Below are positions 11,586 to 55,700 of a stretch of DNA of 64,000 nt, piece by piece. Origin of the DNA: Scenedesmus sp. PABB004 (Eukaryota); assembly GCA_014905635.1 (NCBI GenBank), contig JABVCE010000005.1:496001-560000 (forward strand), given 5' to 3'. Within the stretch, counting starts at the first letter, position 1. Each line of letters opens with the position of its first letter. The notes below the pieces were generated by a model. It saw nothing but the letters and a program-made list of their open reading frames with translations, ran no database searches and had not been told where the DNA came from. Made by a program: the position numbers and the translations under genes.

Positions 11586-11688
11586 CGCGCCGCGCGCCGC
11601 GCGGCGGCGAGGGAGGAGGGTAACGGTAACCACTCGTTACCGCGGCCGCGCGTGCCGCGCCGCGCGCTGCGCCGGTCACTGGCCGCGG

Positions 11689-42600: not shown

Positions 42601-43635
42601 CCCGCCGGCCGGCGGGCGGTTCTTCGCGCCGACCGCGTCGCTCAGCGCGGCCTGCATCTGCTGGTTGTTCGGGTCGAGCCGCAGGCCTGGGCACCGGGAC
42701 GCGGGCGGGCGGGCGCGCGCGCGCGACGCGCGTCGGCGGCCGCCGGGCGGCCGCGTGCGGCGGGGGCTGCTGCTGCGCCGCTGCGCACGCGCTGCCGCTG
42801 CGCACCATCCTCGTACGCCTTGATCGCCTCCTCCCACTCCTGCAGCCCGTAGTGCGCCGCGCCGAGGCGGCTGTAGCCCTTGGCCCAGTCCGGCTTGAGC
42901 TCCACGCACTGCGCGGCCGCGGGCCCCGCGGTGAGGCGCGGGCGCGTCGCAGCTTCCGGAAGCTCCGCCGCGCCGCCGCTGCCGTGCGCGCGCCGGCCGC
43001 CGGCCGGCCAGCGCGGCGGCGCGCCGGGCGCGCGCGTGCACCCCTGCGCCGCGCACCTTGCGTGCGTCCTTCAGCGCCTTGCTGTACTGCTTCAGACTCG
43101 CCTGCGCAGGCGGCCGCGGGTGCGGCGGGCCGCCGCTCAGCATGCAGCCCGGCGTGCGCCCGGCTCGCGCGGCGGCAGTGCTGCTGCGCACGCGGGCGGA
43201 CGGCGGAGGGGCGCCGCGGCCGCGCGGGCGCTGGCGCGGCCGGGCGGACGCGGCTGCGCGGGCGCGTCGCCAGCGCGGCGGCCGGCGCGCGCTGCGCAGC
43301 CCGCCGCCCGCGCGCCGGCCGCCGCTGCTGCTGGCGCCGGCCACCGCAGCGCGCCCCCGGCAGGCCGCCTCGCGGCCCAGGCTCAGAGCGGCCGGCGGCG
43401 GCGCCGCGGCCGCGTGCGGCGCACCTCGGCGGCGCTGCGGTTGCTGTAGAGGACGTGGTTGGCCGGATCGAGCTCTATGGCGGCGCTAAAGTGCTGGATC
43501 GCCTCCTCGTACCGCCCCGCGCTGAAGGCGGCGTTGCCCTTGGCCTGCGCGCGTGCCGGCGCCGGGCTCGCGCGCGATGCGGGCGCGCCGCGCCGCCCGC
43601 GCGCCGCGGCGCCGCACCTTGAGCTCGTCCGCCAT
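39616..43635 (-). CDS. HOP: Hsp70/Hsp90 organising protein (HOP/STI1), multi-exon
   Basis: [98 protein letters not shown]. Confidence 0.97.
40437..40492. repeat. Tandem 8-mer (GGCCCTGT)x7 in a HOP intron
   Basis: Seven perfect copies read directly. Confidence 0.95.
40729..40903. repeat. (GGGA)n polypurine microsatellite in a HOP intron
   Basis: About 175 nt containing only G and A on the + strand. Confidence 0.97.
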
Positions 43636-44390
43636 GCTGGACGAATCGCGGTGGATGGCGGGCGCTGCTGCTGCGCGGTGCGGGCTCTTTCGCGCGCTGC
43701 TGCTGCAGATAGCTCGTCGAGAAGTCTCTGCTGCTCGAGCGCGCGGCTGGGCTGGCGGCGGCAACGTCAGCGCTGCGCGTGACGGCGGAGCAGTGACTGA
43801 GATTGGGGAGGCGGCCGGCGCGTCAGCGGCCGCGCGGCGGCGGCGCGGGGTCGCGCTTCAGCGGCGGGCGGCGCGCGAGCAACCGAGCAATCGGCACATT
43901 GCCCCCCGTGGGTGTGCAGCTCTGATGTACAGCCCTCGCCACACCACCACCACCACGACAGCTAGCGACAAAAAGACATGGCGCGTGCGTGCGCGTGCGT
44001 GTGCTCGCTCGCGCCCCGGACAGGCAGGCGCGGCGGCGGTCCAGCCACGAACCACCAGCATCACCGCCATCAAAACGCCCGCTCCGCATAGGCGCGAGTT
44101 TCATTCGGCGGTGGCTGAACACCGCGCCGCGCCGCGCGGCGCGCCCGCCGGCGCCCGCCGCGGGGCGGGGCGGCGGGCGCGGCGCGGCGGGGCGCCGGGG
44201 CGCGCGCCCGCGCCGCGGCTGCGACGCCGCGGCGCGGGCGGCGCCGGCGCCGCGGGCGCCGCAGGCTCCGGGGGCGCCACAGGCTCCGCGGGCGCCGCGG
44301 CCGGCGGCGGCGGCTCGCGCCGCCGCGCCGGCGGGGTGCGCTCGTCGCGCGCCGCGCGCGCGCGGGCCGCACTCCCGCGCTCGCCCGCGC

Positions 44391-46129
<1,739 letters not shown>

Positions 46130-46589
46130 TCAGCGCCCGACGCGCATGGGCGCGCCGCCCGCCGCGGGGCAGCGACGGGGCCGCGCGGGGACTCGGAGCG
46201 CGGCGCTGGGCGGGCGGGCGCGGCGAGGAAGAGCCTGTTGTTGCCGGGCAGCGCGGGGCGGGCCGTGGCCGCGCGAGTGGCGCCGGTCGGTCGCGCGGAT
46301 AATGGTGGGCGTGCACCGCGGGCGCGGGCGAGAGGGCCGGCCAAGGGACGACAGGCGAGCGGGCGCTGGCGCCGCTCGGGCTCCCGTCCTCTAGAGCGCT
46401 CAGCGACTCGCTGAGAGCCCCCACGCGCGTACAGCACCAACTCGCCCGGCCGCGCAGCGCGCCGCTGCCGCCCGCCCGCCGCGCCCGCCAGCGTGCTGCG
46501 CGTGCCGCGGCGGGCAGGCGCTGCCCCAGCCCCTGCGGAGGGCCGGGGCGTCTCTCGCCCGCCCAGGCGCTGCTGCAGGGCTTCGCTGC

Positions 46590-47033
46590 GTTCAACCAGC
46601 GGCGGCGCGCGGCCCGGCGGCGGCGGGGCCCGCGCCCCGGCGTCCGCGCACGCGCGATCGGATCGACGGCGCGGCACGCAGGGCGCTCGCCGGCGCGCCC
46701 TTCTCCGTGGGTCACCCGCGCGACCGCACTCGCGGATACCCGAGCTCCCCGGCAACGCGCCGCCCCGCGCCGCACCGCCCGGGCAGCAGCCCCTGCGCCG
46801 CGCGCCGCGCGCCGTCGTGCAAGGCGTGCGGCGCGCCCGGCGCGGCGCGGCAGGCGCGCAGGCTGAAGTGTTGTAGGAGACCGTCGGGCTGCCGGCCGCG
46901 GGCGCCGGGGGGTTGGCGCCGCCCGCGCAGCCCAGTCCGCCCACCCCAGAGCACCACGCCGCCGACGCGCCCGCCCGCCAGCGATCAGGCGGTCGCCGGC
47001 ACGCCAGCGCAAACCACCGGCAGGTGCATCGCC
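46590..47033 (+). repeat. Left arm of a ~450-bp inverted duplication (partner at 49533-49985)
   Basis: For example GGCTGAAGTGTTGTAGGAGACCGTCGGGCTGCC (from 46861) is the exact reverse complement of sequence at ~49673-49705. Similarity ends sharply at ...GGTGCATCGCC (47033). Confidence 0.95.
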
Positions 47034-47699
47034 TGGGGGTTACCGGCGCAACCCGCACGCGCGCACGCGCGCCCTCAATCTCTCTCGCACTCGCCGCCGA
47101 CCGACCGACCACAGTCCCTCGCAGCAGCAGCAGCCCTCCACTCCAGCAAACGCGCGTCGAGACACAGCGGGCGGGACGCCGCGCGCGGGGCCCCAAGACT
47201 CCCGGCGCGCCCGCAAACCAGGTTGGTGGTGGGGATTTATGGGGGCGCCAGCACGCGCTGGACCACCGGGCGCGCAGGCACGTGCGTCGCCCTAATAGAC
47301 GGGGGGCCGTTCCACCCTGACACACACGTTCAACCCACACGCAGCGCGGGCGGGCGGGCGCGCGCCGCCTCGGGCGTGCGCGCCGCCCCGCCCCTCAGCC
47401 CCCACTATCCCCCTCTGCTGGCGTGCCCAGCTCACGGCCTGCACAGCTCTGCCGCTGCGCCCGCGCCGCCCCGCCAAAACAGACAGAGTGTGCGCGCGCC
47501 ACAGGTCAACAGGTCTTCGTGCGCCTCCCAAGCGCAGCGCGCCCGCCCCGCTACCTACAGTGTGCGCCGGCGAGCGCGGCGCCGCGCACGCGCGCGGGCC
47601 GCGCCGCGTCGCGCGGCCCAGTCCTGCGTGCCCGTGTTCTGTTTGGTCAGCCCATTCAGGTGTGGTGCAGGCACGCGCCGGCGCGGCGCGGCGCGCGCG

Positions 47700-49528
47700 T
47701 CACGCGTCGTCGTGGCCGTGCGCGTGGCGCTGCTGCTCCAGGTCACAGCCGTCCTCGAGCTCCGCCTCGCCGTCCTGGCCGTGCAGGCGCGCCGCCGCCG
47801 CGCGCAGGTCGCGGCGCTCGACCTCGCTCACGATGTCAGACACGCGCGAGTGGTCGCCTGCGCGCGCGGCGCGCGGCGGCGCGTGGGCGGCGGCGCGCGC
47901 GGGCGCGGGCGGCAGCACGAGCGCGCGGCGCGGCGCGGCGCGGCGCGGCCCTCCGCCCCGCGCCCGCGCGCGCGCCCTGCCGCGGGCCCGGCGGCGCCAC
48001 GGCGCGTGACTTGCAGGACTCCCTCACCTCCCATGACTTGCAGGATGGCGTGCCACATCGCGCGGCCGTTGCTGAGCTCCGCGCTCAGCGTGAGCGCGGG
48101 GCTCGCGGCGGTGCAGAACCACACGCCGCTGCGGCACTCCTCCTCGAGTTGCCCCGGCGCCCAGCCCGCGTACTGCGCGTAGAAGCGAAAGTCGGACGGC
48201 TCCGCCAGCCCCGCCGCGACGGCCGCGCCGGCGCCGTGCACGTTGTGGTGGTACACGCCGTCGGTGACCTGCGGCGCGCAGCGGGCACGGTGGGCAGCGG
48301 CGCGCGGCCGGCAAGCGCGTGCAGGGCGAGCGCGCGCAGGGGGCGGGGGCGCGGGCGCGGGGCGCCGCGCGGGGCGCGCGGCGCCGGCAGGGCCCAGCAA
48401 CGTCGCCCCGCCCCGCGGGCGCACCTGGGTGACGCCGTCGATGTCGGCGCGGTGCGTGAGGACGACCATCGCGGTGTCGCCGCAGTCGCCGCCCATGTGG
48501 AGGCGGTTGTCGGCGAAGAGCGCGAGCAGGTCGTGCACGGTCGACTTGATCTGGCTCACGCGGTACTGCGTGGGGCGGTTGAGGATGATGCCGTAGCTGC
48601 CGTCCGGGCCGTGGTCGAGCAGCAGGATGACGGCCTGGTAGAAGTAGGTCTGTGTTGCGCGTGTGTGTGGCGCCGCACACAGGCGGGAGCGGGAGCGGCG
48701 GGAGCGGGCGGGCGGGTGAGGAGGAGGGGGCGAGGAGGCGCGGGGCGAAGCCGTGGGCGCGGGCGCGGGCGCAACAGACCTGGCGCTCGCGGAACATGTA
48801 GGGGTGCGCCAGCAGCAGGCAGCCCGCCTCGGGCTTGGACAGCTCGTGCGCCCACTCGAGCTGGTTGAAGCTGCTGCGCATCGCCGGCCACGCGCCGCCC
48901 TCCGGCGCCGCGTCTGCGGCGGCGGCGGGCTGCGCCGAGCTGCGGGTGCTGGCCACGAGCCGCGCCCTGCAGCGCGGGCGGGCGGGCGGGCGGGCGGGCG
49001 CATGCGCGGGTGGGTGGGTGGGTGGGCCGCCGGCCAGGCCGGCGCGGCGCGCCGACGCGCGCGCGCGGCCCCGACGGGCGCGGCCGCGCTGCTGCTGCCG
49101 CCGCAGCGCACCTGAATTCGCGCCAGTCCGCGCCCGGCTGGGCCACGGGCACGACGTCCGGCACCGTGGTGGCCTTCTGGTAGGTCTGGTCGCCGGCGCG
49201 GTCCTCGGAGCCGTCGCTGTGGCGCCGGGCAGCAGGGGGTGAGCGCCGGGCCATCACCCCGCCCCCCGCCGCCGCCCCGCGTCGCGGCGGGCCGCCGCGC
49301 ACCTCAGCGCCGCCAGCGTCGTCCGGTGCGACCGTCGGCCGGCGCGCAGCACCTGCGGGGCGCCAGGCAGCTGATGAGGGGCCGGGGCGCGATGGCCACC
49401 GACAGTGCAGCGCCCGGGACGGCGCGCCTGGGCCGCACCGTGTCACGGCCGCATCGGTGTCCGCTGACGGGCGCCGCTGGGCGTGACGTGCTGGCCTGGG
49501 AACCGCTGGCGAGGCGTCCAGCGTGCAT
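47700..49528 (-). CDS. DUF179/YqgE/AlgH-family protein with an organellar-type presequence, multi-exon
   Basis: ADWREFRARLVA, WAHELSKPEAGCLLLA, YFYQAVILLLDHGPDGSYGIILNRP, LHMGGD, FRFYAQYAGWAPGQLEEECRSGVW, MWHAILQVMGG. ATG at 49528. Confidence 0.92.
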
Positions 49529-49532
49529 TTTT

Positions 49533-49985
49533 GGCGATGCACCTGCTGGTGGTTTGCGCTGGCGTGCTGGCGGCCGCCTGATCGCTGGCGGGCGGGCGCG
49601 TCGGCGGCGTCGTGCTCTGGGGCGGGCGGACTGGGCTGCCCGGGCTGCGCCAACCCCCCGGCGCCCGCGGCCGGCAGCCCGACGGTCTCCTACAACACTT
49701 CAGCCTGCGCGCCTGCCGCGCCGCGCCGGGCGCGCCGCACGCCTTGCACGACGGCGCGCGGCGCGCGGCGCAGGGGCTGCTGCCCGGGCGGTGCGGCGCG
49801 GGGCGGCGCGTCGCCGGGGGGCTCGGGTATCCGCGAGTGCGGCGGGTGACCCACGGAGAAGGGCGCGCCGGCGGACGCCCTGCGCGCCGCGCCGTCGATC
49901 CGATCGCGCGTGCGGCGGACACCGGGGTCGTGCGGGCCGCGCCGCCGCCGGGCCGCGCGCCGCGCCGCCGCCGCCAGGTCAACGC
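49533..49985 (-). repeat. Right arm of the inverted duplication; forms the immediate upstream region of the DUF179 gene
   Basis: Reverse complement of 46590-47033 with scattered substitutions and small indels. Ends 4 nt before the DUF179 ATG. Confidence 0.95.
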
Positions 49986-50347
49986 GGCGCGGGCTCGCGC
50001 TCTCCACAGCGTTACGCACACGGACGTCGCCGCGAACCTAAAAGGCTAGCTAGTGATCTCCCGACCGCGCGCTCAAGCCGCAGCCGAGGCGGCGGGCGAG
50101 CCCGCGGCGCGAGGTCCTGTCGTGCGCGTGCCGCAACCCCGGACCCAACGCACTCGCCGGCATCGCCCCGCCATCAATGCAACTCGCAGCAAAACGCCGC
50201 CGCCGCGCTGGATTTGAAGCAGTCCCCGCATGTGCGTGAAGCAATGGTGCGGCCCCCGCGCCCCCGCGCGACCCCGCCGCCGCGCCCACGCGGCCCCCCT
50301 GCGTGCGTGTGCTGCGCCCCGTGCCGAGCGCGCCGCACGGCACGCTG

Positions 50348-51028
50348 CTACGCGCCGCCGCCCTGCAGCAGCGCCGCGGCCTCGGCCTGCTGCTCCGCGA
50401 GCAGCAGCTCCAGCTCGTCCATGATCGCGGTCCATATGAAGCAGTACTGCTCCGCCGTCTGCACCGTGCCGCGCCGCTGCTTGCGCAGCGCGGTGACGAG
50501 GCCGGGGATGTCCATCGCGGCCACCACGTCGGCCTCGCTCACACTGCCGTGCAGCTGCAGCGTGAGCGCGTGCAGGCGCTGCAGCAGCATGTCGACCGCG
50601 ACAAACGTCCCCGTGCGCCCCACGCCCTGCGTCGGCGCGGCGCGGCGCGCGGCCGGGCGGCGCGGTCACAGGCGGGCGCGGCGGGGCGGGCAGCGGCCAG
50701 GCGCGCGCGGCCAGGCGGGCGCCGCCGCCGCGGGCACCGCCGCACCGCGCTGCAGTGCACCACGATCTTGCAGCCCGCGCGGCGGCAGCCGTCGAGCGCG
50801 TGGCAGAGCGCGAGCACGCTGCCCGTGCTCGGCGGCACGCCGTAGTCGGGCCAGGCCAGGTACTGATAGTGATTGATCCACAGCCGCGCCGGCGCCGCCG
50901 CCGCCCCGCCGCCGCTGCTGCTGCCCGCACCGCCGGCGGCGGCGCCGCCGGCGCCTCCCGGCGGCGGCGCGGCCGCCGCGGCAGCGGCCGCCGCCGCCGC
51001 CGGCGGCTGCCCCGGCGCGGGCGGCTGC

Positions 51029-51059
<31 letters not shown>

Positions 51060-52085
51060 TGCCGCTGCCGCCGCCGCTCCAGACGACTTCGAGCTGCCGG
51101 AAGACCACGGCGTCGTCCTCGAGCGTGTTGCGGTGCACGCAGGTGACCGTGATGCCGCCGGGCAGGCGCAGGCAGTCGTGCTCGCCGTCGGGGAAGTACG
51201 CCGCGCAGCGCGGCCGGCTGTTGCCGAGCGCGGCGCAGCCGTCGGTGAGGCCGGTCAGCATCACGATCGCGCTCGTGTTGGTCGCGCCGACCATGCGCCA
51301 GAGGTCGGCGACCGTGCCGGGGAGCGGGCCCTGCGTCGCGATGTAGCCCAGCCCCGCGCCGCCCGGCTCGCCCGGCAGCTGCGGGTCGGTGAGGAAGCTG
51401 GCGTTGATGTACGTCCCCTCGCCGCTGCCGACCTCGCCGGCGGCGCCGGCACCACCGCCGCCGCGCCGCGGCGGCAGCGGCGGCAGCGCCACGCGGTTGT
51501 GGTCGTACGGGACGACGTCGCGGTAGCGGTTCTTGGCCGCGTTGCGCTCCGCGTGCGCGACGGCGCAGGGGCTGTCGTACGGGTTGTCCGCGTCCAGGAC
51601 CGCCATGAACTCGGCGGCCGCCGCCTCGGCGCTGAAGCGGCCGCGCAGGTGGCGCAGCGCGGTGCTGCGCGCGCGGCGCGGCGGCGGCGCGGCGCGGTGT
51701 CACGGGCGGGGGCGCGCCGTCACGGTCGCGACGCGGCGCGCGGCGCCCGGCCGCACCTGTATATCTGCTGGCAGAACGCGCTGTTGAGCGCCTCCAGCGC
51801 CTGCACCTTGACCTCCGCAACCTGGCCGCCGCCGCCGCCCGGCGCGCGCTGCTGGTGCTGCAGCTGCAGCTGCAGCTGCTGCCCGTCCATGTGCTGCTGC
51901 TGCTTCTGGTCCTGCTGCCCCTGCTGCTGCTGCTGACTCGCCTGCGGCGGCCGCGGCGGCGCGGGCTGCTGCTGTGCGGGCGCACGCGCTCCGCCGCCGC
52001 CGCTGCTGGAGCCGCGCGGCGCGCCGTCCGGCTGCTGCGGCGCGCGCAGGGACAGCCCGAGAGCGACGGGGATTTCCGGCGACAT
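50348..52085 (-). CDS. PTP1: Classical protein tyrosine phosphatase (PTP1-like), 3 exons
   Basis: KNRYRDVVPYDHNRV, YINAS, YIATQGPL, WPDYGVP, VVHCSA|GVGRTG, QTAEQY. Confidence 0.95.
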
Positions 52086-52705
52086 GGGGCGCCGCCGCCC
52101 TGGCGCTGCGGCGGCCTGCTCACGCGCCGGCGGGTCCCGACGCGGCGGGCATGCCTCGCGAGGGCCCCGCGGGCCAGGGGCGGGGCTGTCCGGCCTGCGG
52201 GCGCGGCGTCAGGCAGGGGCAGCGCCGATCAACGCGTGTCGCCGGGCGCGAGTCCGTGCGCGTGCCTCACGCGCGCGCAGGCGCCCGATTTCGTCGAGCC
52301 CATGCCGCTGCGCCCCTGCGCGCAGCCAGCACTTGCGCACGCCCGCGCGCTCGCCCCGTCCCGGGTGGCGCGACGTGCGCGGATCGCGCGCCCAGGGTCA
52401 GCGCCCAGCAGCTGGAAAGTGCGCAGCGGACCCTTGCCAGCGCCCACCTGCCGGCGCGGCCGCCTGGCGCGTCCGCGGACGCCTCCGAGGCCTGGACGCG
52501 CTGGGCGACCGTCCCGAGGCCTGGACGCGCTGCTGCTGTCGGTGGCAGGTGCAGGCCGGGCGCGTGCAGCAGGCGCGGACTGCCAGGGCGGCCGAGGTGG
52601 AGAGGCTTGCAGAGAGAGAGAGTGGCGCAGTGCACGCGCTGGTTGCAACGTCGTACCGCCGCCGCGCGCCGCGCCGCTTGCGCCCCGTCCGCTGCGCCCG
52701 GCCCC

Positions 52706-55700
52706 TCACGGCGGCGCGCCGCGCGGCTTCATGCCAAAGCGCGGGTTGGCCATCAGCCGCACGTGGTGCCGCCCAGCGCCGCCGCTGCCGCCGGCCCCTG
52801 CCGGCGCCGGCGGCGCGTCGCCCCCACGCGAGCGCGCGCGGGCCGCAAGGCCGCCTGCGCGCGCGGGGCCGGCGGCGGGCTGCCACACCATCGATATCGG
52901 CGCCGCCGCGTCCCAGGCGCCGCCCTCGTCGTCGCCCCGCGCCTCGCCGTCGGGGGAGGGCGACCGCAGCTCGCCCCGCGCCTCGCCGTCGGGGGAGGGC
53001 GACCGCAGCTCGCCCCGCGCCTCGCCGTCGGGGGAGGGCGACCGCAGCTCGCCCCGCGCCTCGCCGTCGGGGGAGGGCGACCGCAGCTCGCCCCGCGCCT
53101 CGCCGTCGGGGGAGGGCGACCGCAGCTCGCCCCGCGCCTCGCCGTCGGGGGAGGGCGACCGCAGCTCGCCCCGCGCCTCGCCGTCGGGGGAGGGCGACCG
53201 CAGCTCGCCCCGCGCCTCGCCGTCGGGGGAGGGCGACCGCAGCTCGCCCCGCGCCTCGCCGTCGGGGGAGGGCGACCGCAGCTCGCCCCCCGCCTCGCCG
53301 CCGAGGGAGGGCGACCGCAGCTTGCCCCGCGCCTCGCCGTCGGGGGAGGGCGGCCGCAGCTCGCAGCCCCCGTCCCAGGCACCGCCGTCGCCGTCGCCCC
53401 ACTCCTCGCCGTCAGGCGAGGGCGGCCGCAGCTCGCCCCGCGCCTCGCCGCTGGGGGAGGGCGGTCGCAGCTCGCAGCCCGCGTCCCAGGCACCGCCGCT
53501 GCAGTCACCCCGCGCCTCGCCGTTGGGGGAGGGCGGCCGCAGCTCGCGGCCCCCGTTGCGCCCGGCGAGGCCGTCCGCCGGCGGCGGCGCGGTCGACGGC
53601 GCGGGTGACCCGCGGCGCCTGGTCGCTCGCGGCGCCGCGTCGCGGCGCGGCGCGGCGCGCACCCAGCCGCTGTCGTCGCTCTCGCGGCGCGTCACGCTGG
53701 AGTGCCTGGGCGGCACGTAGGCGATGGCGTCGCGGCTGCCCAGCAGGCCGCGGCGCGCCGCGTCCCTCGCCGGCAGCAGGATGAGGCGCCGGCCGTCCCG
53801 CAGCACCGCCTCGGGCCCGCCCGGGCCGGCGAGGTTGTCGGCCAGGAAGGCGAGGGTGGAGCGGTAGAGCTGCGCGCGGCGCGGTTTTGGGCGCGCCCCA
53901 CGTGGGCACCGCGCAAACGCCGCCGGCCGCGGGGCAGCCCCGCCCCGCGCCTTGGTCGCCGCACCTTGGCGTACGCGAGCAGCGGCGCCAGGTCTGCCTC
54001 GCAGCCCATGGCGTCTTCGAACTCGGCGAGCGGCAGGCCGGCGCCCTCGGGCGCGCCGCCGCGCAGCCGCGCCAGCGCGGCGAGCAGCAGCCGCCGCAGC
54101 AGGCCGTGGCGGCGCACCGCGGACATGTAGCCGGGGACGGCCTGCGGCGAGCGCGGCGGCGGCGAGCTTGGTGCGGGCCGCCGCAGTGGCAGGCGTGCCG
54201 CGCGGGTGGTGCCAAGCGCCCCGACCCGCTCACGCGCACGCCGCCCTCGCCCGCGCGCTCCAGGGTGGAGCAGCGGCTGCTGGCAGCAAAGTCCGCGGCG
54301 CTGTAGCGACCGGGTGCGAGGCCGTGCGGCAGCGCGCCCCACAGCGCGCCACCCGGCACGAAGAGCTCGGCCACGTTGCGCGGTTCGCACGCGACCTCGA
54401 GGTTGATGCGGATGTCGGCGGCGTTGTGCAGGCCCGTCGGCGCCGCAGCCGCGAGCGCGGCGAGCTCGTGCAGCAGCACCACCGAGCGCAGCTCGTCGCG
54501 CTCGGCGCTGCTGCTCAGGGCCGCCATGCAGCCGGACAGGCGCTCGAGGCAGGCGGCAGACAGGCCAGGCAGCGAGTTGTTCAAGCGCAGGGGCGGCAGC
54601 GGGCCGCCCTGCCGCAGTGCCCCCGCCGGTGAAGCGCGCAGCTGCGACGCGCGCCCCGGCTCGGCCTTACCGCCGCCGCTCCGGTCGTGGCCGCCGCGCT
54701 GCGGCGCGCCGCGCGGCCCGCCACGGCTGGTGTCGCTGTCGCTGTCGCTGCCGCTCGGCGAGCGGCGGCGCTTGTGCGCGCCCAGGCCTGGCGCCCGGTC
54801 CTGGCTGCTGCGCCCCCTGCTGCCAGCGGCGTGCTGCCGCGGCTCCTGCTCTGCGCCGCGCGCCAGCGCCGCCTCCTGGCTGAGCTGATCCCCCTGGCTG
54901 CTGCCGCTGCCAGGGGCCAGCAGCGAGGCGGCGGCCACCGGCGCCTGGCCAGGCTGCGGCTGCTTGGGCGCCTGCTGCTGCGCTGGCACCGCCGCCGGGG
55001 CCCAGCCCTCGGCCTGCAGCTCGGCCTGCTGCGCCGCCAGCTGCGCCTTGAGCGCCGCCGCGCTCGCCGCCGCCGCCGCCAGCGCCTCTGCCGCGCCCGG
55101 GGCGGGTCGGGCGCCCCGGTCCTGGCGTCAAACCACGATGTGGCCATGACCGCCACCGGCGCCACGCTGTCATACAGCAGCCCCCGAGGCCCGTACACGC
55201 GCCCGCCGCCCGGCGCCGCGGCCCAGTGCTTGCGCGCGTGCGGCGGCAGCGCCTGCTGCAGCAGCGGCAGCAGCGGGCCGTTGGGGTTTGCGGACACAAA
55301 AGCGTGCCCAGTCAGCTGGCCGCCGGGAGCGCCGCCGCCGCCGCCGTGCGCGTCGCAGTCGAGCTGCAGGGCGCTGCGCGCGACGTGCGTGCCGCCCTGC
55401 GGGCAGGGCGGGTGCGTCGGCGCGGCGGCGGTCGCCGCTGGCTCGGCAGCGCCGCCCCCCAGGGCTGGGCCGAGCGCGAGCAGCAGCTCGCAGGGGGCCC
55501 TGCGGCCAGCGCTCGCGCACCAGGCGCCCGCCAGAGTTGCGCAGCGCCCGCATCAGCGCGCTGAGCTGCGACACGTCGCCGGCGCCCTCAGGCACCAGCA
55601 CGAGCGGCGCGCCGTCCCAGCCGGCGCTCAGCGGCGCGCCGCCGGGCGGCGCGCCGGGCGGCGGCGCCTGCCAGAGCTGCTTGAATTTGCGCGACGGCAA

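Follow-up and report, generated by a model that had tools for sequence, protein, structure and literature searches.

In the 64,000-nucleotide stretch of the Scenedesmus sp. PABB004 genome analyzed here (the window, approximately 79% GC, to which coordinates without a contig prefix refer), a single gene for a DUF179/AlgH-like protein is bracketed by two inverted copies of the DNA that precedes its start codon. The inverted repeat is a real biological feature. The two arms are probably the scar of an inversion of this one gene, during which a staggered break duplicated the promoter and 5'-leader. This is most likely a known kind of rearrangement, and no evidence for a dedicated function was found.

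Local alignment of the left arm with the reverse complement of the right arm (49963 to 49533) gave 413 identical positions, 14 substitutions, and 4 indels. A BLAST comparison of the two arms returned 94.5% identity over 436 columns. The preliminary description of this locus, made from the DNA letters alone, reported near-identical inverted arms enclosing one gene, and the local alignment, BLAST, and the gene model all agree with it. The spacer between the arms is 2499 bp and contains only DUF179, and the pair is the sole long inverted repeat of high identity within the window. The inner ends of the arms are sharp. As had been noted, the right arm stops 4 nt before the DUF179 start codon, and its inner edge is followed by four A's and then by the ATG at 49528-49526. 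The outer ends were said to fade, and under lenient scoring a ragged extension was found to reach approximately 46584 and 49989, which matches the limits of 46590 and 49985 given earlier. The substitutions comprise 10 transitions and 4 transversions, and because the differences are rich in transitions, the arms appear to have diverged biologically. The polarity of base changes between the arms has no direction (5 versus 6 weak/strong changes).

The copy number of the arm was determined by a search of the whole genome (39.97 Mb), with only the best candidates being scored. The full arm was covered by 2 of the 31 matches, and the remaining 29 were partial and fell nearly all within its GC-rich middle. 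With two full copies in the genome, the arm is not an ordinary dispersed repeat. The absence of a target-site duplication was also borne out, since the best flanking direct repeat was 5 bp, which was equaled or exceeded in 425 of 500 random placements. No Pfam family was matched by the reading frames over the arms.

MYST, DUF179, and the protein-tyrosine phosphatase (PTP) gene all have minus-strand orientation, and the DUF179 start codon adjoins the right arm, which is thus the upstream region of DUF179 and presumably contains its promoter. The left arm repeats this region and is oriented away from MYST and toward the 3'-end of DUF179. The left arm retains 96.7% of the aligned positions, including the word CGATCG. 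The coordinates of the features at this locus are collected in Table 1.

Table 1. Features of the DUF179 locus in the window (UTR, untranslated region)
Feature	Position	Strand	Basis
Left arm; copy of the DUF179 promoter/5'-leader without its gene after it	46602..47033	+	alignment, genome search
Right arm; apparent working DUF179 promoter/5'-leader, stops 4 nt short of ATG	49533..49963	-	alignment, promoter-like composition
Identical 165-bp tract, left arm versus right-arm partner	46755..46919	.	alignment
DUF179/AlgH-like gene, 7 exons, 351 aa, intact, single copy	47700..49528	-	exon model, Pfam DUF179, genome search
DUF179 exons	49528-49439, 49352-49303, 49216-49112, 48966-48780, 48649-48425, 48268-48028, 47857-47700	-	
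Probable DUF179 3'-UTR, terminator-like	47034..47699	-	composition, inference
MYST histone acetyltransferase (Tudor-knot, zf-MYST, MOZ_SAS), ATG 46105	44391..46105	-	domain matches
Protein-tyrosine phosphatase (PTP), coding segments, 5'-end approximate	50348..51935	-	domain matches
GGTAAC, probable DUF179 poly(A) signal, 5 nt from left inner junction	47039..47044	-	sequence
CGTAAC, probable PTP poly(A) signal, ~22 nt beyond ragged outer end of right arm	50011..50016	-	sequence
CGATCG, left arm; sole copy between MYST ATG and DUF179 stop	46655..46660	.	word count
CGATCG, right arm; sole copy between DUF179 ATG and PTP stop	49901..49906	.	word count

The DUF179 reading frame is unbroken over its 351 codons, all introns are of the GT-AG type, and the gene gave only one match in the genome. 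The start codon is backed by the similar N-termini of homologues from Tetradesmus and Flechtneria, and the start of MYST likewise agrees with a Tetradesmus protein. The 3'-end of PTP adjoins the right arm. The proteins of the window are closest to those of green algae of the Scenedesmaceae. The DUF179 and MYST proteins carry consecutive numbers in three assemblies of Tetradesmus obliquus (OEZ85_006394/5, OEZ86_006088/9, and SZX61933/4) and in Scenedesmus sp. NREL 46B-D3 (KAF6264861/2). Because DUF179 is linked to MYST in these four Scenedesmaceae assemblies and is present in a single copy here, it stayed in place and did not move in. The best listed homologues from Chlamydomonas are found on different chromosomes (Cre03.g189700 and Cre13.g587150) and are no guide to the ancestral orientation. 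DNA from relatives was sought in metagenomes, where a first scan found no relative and the 80 loci of a second scan, with identities of 26-37%, included no algal orthologue, and in viral contigs, where none was found. A literature search on the six accession numbers found no mention of them.

The junctions of the arms were compared with words that distinguish the ends of genes from their beginnings. Coding segments were predicted by codon usage in 864 kb of the genome, which provided 63 divergent and 48 convergent intergenic regions with the DUF179 locus excluded. The pentamer most enriched in the convergent regions was GTAAC, found in 23 of these 48 versus 5 of the 63 divergent ones (p = 2e-6, uncorrected), with TGTAA behind it at 19 of 48 and 4 of 63. 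In a held-out 90 kb, GTAAC was present in 3 of 8 convergent and 0 of 7 divergent regions. Only 93 copies of TGTAA occur in the 864-kb sample, and variants resembling GGTAAC probably serve there as poly(A) signals. In the available part of a study of Chlamydomonas and Prototheca, GUAAC is the second-ranked pentamer upstream of cleavage sites, and UGUAA peaks approximately 17 nt ahead of the cleavage site (PMC1868727). The 3'-ends of genes in this genome (79% GC) should therefore be read with GTAAC as well as TGTAA.

Within the two intergenic spaces of this locus, GTAAC is found exactly twice, both times on the minus strand (47043-47039 and 50015-50011). The preliminary description was correct that no TGTAA stands between the DUF179 stop codon and the left arm, but a signal is not lacking, given the GGTAAC at 47044-47039. 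Because GTAAC words flank both arm junctions, the DUF179 transcript probably ends a few bases into the left arm, and the PTP transcript immediately beyond the right arm. A Markov score for promoter versus terminator composition, which classified 85 of 111 regions correctly in a leave-one-out procedure, gave log-odds per 100 nt of -3.46 for 49986-50130 and -2.56 for 47034-47699, both terminator-like, and weakly promoter-like values of +0.42 and +0.57 for the arms. The word CGATCG is enriched in divergent regions (29 of 63, versus 6 of 48 convergent). It is a plausible, not a proven, promoter motif, because methylated GATC sites in Chlamydomonas cluster around transcription starts in the available part of that report (PMC4835550). 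A dependence of MYST on the CGATCG of the left arm was considered and dropped as evidence, since 34 of the 63 divergent regions are without the word. Elsewhere in the window, two plus-strand GGTAAC words face one minus-strand GGTAAC within approximately 25 bp (11619-11641), forming a compact convergent terminator.

These observations are most simply joined by an inversion, for which we infer both the ancestral orientation and the mechanism of breakage. In the ancestor, DUF179 would have had plus-strand orientation, with its start facing that of MYST (head-to-head) and its end facing that of PTP (tail-to-tail). The first break would have been staggered and would have spanned 430-460 bp upstream of the DUF179 start codon, and the second would have fallen within the approximately 35 bp that separated the poly(A) signal of DUF179 from the opposing one of PTP. 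The ends would then have been filled in and rejoined with the middle segment reversed, thereby doubling the staggered stretch. One copy would have been left beside MYST as the left arm, and the other would have traveled with DUF179 as the right arm. Such an event would have been viable, with DUF179 keeping a complete leader and all three genes keeping their 3'-signals, because the breaks fell between signals and across the duplicated leader. The duplicated piece is exactly the control region of the gene, which would account for the tolerance of the flip, and the left arm need not have any selected function.

When the segment was reversed on paper and one arm removed, DUF179 and MYST stood head-to-head with approximately 930 bp between their start codons, where the median divergent gap is 765 bp. 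The two GTAAC words then faced each other approximately 34 nt apart. Six convergent regions carry signals on both strands, and this order was found within 70 nt in three of them and at 159 nt in one, the order being reversed in the other two. The only two copies of GTAAC in the two intergenic spaces sit just outside exactly the two junctions that an inversion requires. The preliminary description had offered either a staggered-break inversion or a flippable segment as the origin of the arms; the first part of that proposal is the best supported explanation, while a segment that still flips is quite unlikely, as discussed below.

Several observations weigh against an inversion. The adjacency of accession numbers establishes linkage only and not strand, and a copy made without an inversion would give an identical final structure. 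For PTP, no linkage in the relatives was found, its homologue search having returned nothing at an E value of 1e-15 within the lengths searched. The run of same-strand genes that holds the locus (31.6 kb) is the longest in the sample and can be read as the ancestral state at least as easily. The enrichment of CGATCG was not clearly repeated in the held-out DNA (3 of 7 versus 2 of 8). Facing NGTAA words within 80 nt were observed 10 times with 1.7 expected, but the control word TGTAG faced itself at 0-80 nt 11 times with 3.2 expected, and the spacing test is not specific. At one of the sibling loci described below, an inverted and a direct copy are adjacent, which suits a templated insertion better than an inversion alone. 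In this genome, moreover, direct and inverted local duplications occur at about equal frequency.

In fork stalling and template switching (FoSTeS), microhomology-mediated break-induced replication (MMBIR), and repair of the polymerase-theta type, nearby DNA is copied in either orientation at a junction. A local templated insertion without inversion is a possible, though clearly less likely, source of the arms. In contrast to an inversion, it predicts the tandem orientation in relatives: the tandem order would be ancestral, and a break at the 3'-end of DUF179 would have been patched, through template switching or microhomology-mediated repair, with a reversed copy of the region upstream of DUF179. 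Beyond the adjoining inverted and direct copies and the abundance of direct local copies of 166-589 bp, several arm ends lie on words of the CGCC type, as microhomology would yield; the short CGCC/TCGC matches at the junctions are compatible with inversion or insertion, and a GC content of 80% makes such matches likely by chance. The differences between the arms concentrate near both arm ends, and clusters of mutations have been found beside a repaired break in Chlamydomonas, in the available part of that work (PMC9977147). This clustering is not general, however, as seven other short pairs have no common pattern of differences (p = 0.57). The insertion also requires two coincidences, namely, a landing site 5 nt past the DUF179 signal and an otherwise unconstrained copy that ends approximately 22 nt from the PTP signal. 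Both are explained in the inversion by one break between two facing signals.

It is quite unlikely that the segment is still flipping, or that the arms have been homogenized in their central part by crossover or gene conversion, in which case the duplication would be older than its divergence suggests. A flipping segment would provide DUF179 with a full leader in either orientation. The ragged outer ends and the central tract of 165 identical bp, which has a probability of approximately 0.004 if differences are distributed uniformly, are consistent with such exchange, and a 6-kb sibling pair is likewise uneven, with a clean stretch of 1058 bp. The tract was spotted post hoc, however, and the seven other short sibling pairs are without one (P = 0.08-0.82). 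The tract may reflect gene conversion or, alternatively, synthesis that was error-prone close to the junctions. A scan of 50 segments (46 of the 89 predicted coding segments of the window and 4 frames over the arms) found no domain of a recombinase or transposase, and flipping would be expected to have little effect with the promoter being on both sides.

A selected regulatory device, in which antisense RNA from the left arm runs over DUF179 or a read-through stem feeds small-RNA silencing, is very unlikely. The well-retained left arm, with its CGATCG, does face the 3'-end of DUF179, and the duplex of a full read-through transcript would be very stable (-1092 kcal/mol), but stability of this kind follows from any inverted duplication. 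The read-through hairpin that had been suggested, partly on the grounds of a missing poly(A) signal, is disfavored by the GTAAC before the left arm. Cleavage follows such signals by approximately 17 nt in the available part of the study cited above (PMC1868727), and a normal transcript would thus enter the left arm by only some 5-15 nt. The hairpin is also disfavored by its substitutions, as 9 of the 14 break pairs, and the transitions produce 5 G-U pairs and 5 mismatches, with no bias toward G-U. A single arm folds no better than its shuffles (z = -0.37), and the search for a structured RNA in the arm that had been recommended gave 0 Rfam matches at E values up to 5. The similar pairs elsewhere also share no common target. 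Transcription in the antisense direction could plausibly start in the left arm as a by-product, perhaps a weak one, because the left arm seems to hold the promoter of DUF179.

Long inverted arms around host-gene sequence are also the hallmark of Pack-MULE and other terminal inverted repeat (TIR) transposons. That the arms are an assembly artefact, or the TIRs of a gene-capturing, non-autonomous DNA transposon, is scarcely credible: the differences are mostly transitions and not the indels of read errors, the 1.63-Mb contig is free of N over the portion read, and, unlike such a transposon, the locus has no target-site duplication, no sharp outer ends, and no further copies, while the enclosed DUF179 is an intact, single-copy orthologue in its ancestral neighborhood, linked to MYST in relatives. 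A Pack-MULE/TIR element was rejected on the same absence of a target-site duplication and of other copies and on the lack of a parent gene elsewhere; the preliminary description had likewise set the arms apart from such an element, on the fading outer ends and the missing target-site duplication. One DNA run compared over 43000-53000 gave short pieces on MYST, with none listed across the arms, and is uninformative.

The favored staggered-break inversion has close counterparts in Drosophila. In the available part of Ranz et al. (2007), inverted duplications were found at 17 of 29 inversions, with a median length of 321 bp, and 12 inversions had the duplication at one breakpoint only (PMC1885836). 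As in those inversions, the breakpoint DNA here is non-repetitive, and its inverted copies lie at the ends of the segment; the arm of 432 bp is near the median; one breakpoint is duplicated; and the copies have diverged through substitutions and small indels (PMC1885836). Unlike the Drosophila cases, which were established by the gene order of an outgroup (PMC1885836), the inversion proposed here would span just one gene of 2.5 kb, with its promoter and leader as the duplicated DNA. In a green alga, insertions of Dualen long interspersed nuclear elements (LINEs) in Chlamydomonas reinhardtii have a median target-site duplication of 900 bp, in the available part of that report (PMC9977147). These duplications mean that wide staggered cuts, with repair that doubles hundreds of unique bases, occur in green algae. 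In contrast to Dualen (PMC9977147), the copies here are inverted and enclose a gene of the host, and the locus yielded no LINE. A single locus is of small import, as inversions with duplicated breakpoint DNA are already documented (PMC1885836, available part). A literature search that covered few subscription journals and no supplements found no description of this locus or of such events in Scenedesmaceae.

The structure had been presented as singular, but comparable unique inverted pairs were found at four other loci when 954 kb of the genome was aligned with itself, and the DUF179 locus is thus a single instance of something that recurs. The sample was drawn unevenly from five contigs (designated C46, C1, C2, C13, and C24) and amounts to 2.4% of the genome. 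Inverted pairs of at least 400 bp occur at five loci, the DUF179 locus included. Four are on C46 (arms of 6.1 kb and 909, 567, and 436 bp) and one is on C1 (433 and 638 bp, nested); C2 has one inverted pair of 129 bp, and C13 and C24 have none. For inverted pairs of at least 100 bp, every partner lies within 10 kb. Two of the inverted siblings and one direct sibling were searched genome-wide and have just two full copies each.

It is conceivable, if rather doubtful, that a compact genome is being reshuffled here by recurrent local events. Breaks with a wide stagger, or templated copying, would double 0.2-0.9 kb of DNA from promoters, leaders, or terminators over distances of up to 10 kb, and would thereby let one gene or a small block flip or insert and still keep or gain control regions. 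At the DUF179 locus, a bidirectional promoter common to MYST and DUF179 would in this way have become two, one for each gene, with an antisense promoter remaining behind DUF179. Very roughly extrapolated from the 4 further inverted loci in 954 kb, the genome would hold approximately 50-400 such sites. If this process is real, the sites are a natural set for the study of promoter duplication, reassignment, and silencing, and its confirmation genome-wide against the gene order of Tetradesmus would provide a concrete mechanism by which gene order turns over and promoters are reassigned in Scenedesmaceae. The genome-wide pattern outweighs the single locus in interest, and several of the copies put a promoter or leader beside another gene.

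The individual siblings differ in form. The largest (C46:315781-321794 and 327154-333174) is a 6.1-kb inverted duplication of whole coding genes, 95.8% identical, with a spacer of 5.4 kb; its differences are uneven, and the clean stretch mentioned above lies toward the inner end. A unique 557-bp inverted pair (C46:451962-452518 and 461764-462324) brackets a 9.2-kb block of several genes. One copy stops 8 nt before an ATG and the other lies approximately 190 nt upstream of the ATG of a different gene, a possible case of promoter reassignment. At C46:342873-347491, an inverted copy of the 3'-part of a gene directly adjoins a stretch of the neighboring gene copied in direct orientation, which looks like serial template switching; inverted and direct copies side by side imply that more complex repair also occurs. 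The nested inverted pairs are found at C1:2028072-2038572, where the outer pair carries a leader with its first exon, RING-like by eye, to a position immediately upstream of a different gene. Leader or 3'-DNA is duplicated in direct orientation, over 530, 556, and 166 bp, at C46:438648-442064, C2:528231-531248, and C13:1173978-1179174, respectively. Each brackets one gene or a small block, and they resemble very long target-site duplications. Contig C1 also contains an 8.5-kb satellite with units of approximately 172 bp (2003777-2012272) and 279-bp direct repeats around reverse-transcriptase-like coding DNA (2017603-2020911), which is probably a long terminal repeat (LTR) element.

In the window itself, the genes predicted in 31800-64000 are all on the minus strand over approximately 32 kb and encode a TAZ-domain protein, STI1/HOP, MYST, DUF179, PTP, a clathrin adaptor small chain, and an SNF2-family protein. 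A short palindromic stretch (46392-46419) precedes MYST, close to where its transcription probably begins. A 39-bp tandem repeat of approximately 16 copies (52932-53547) lies inside a predicted coding segment and would encode a 13-residue repeat.

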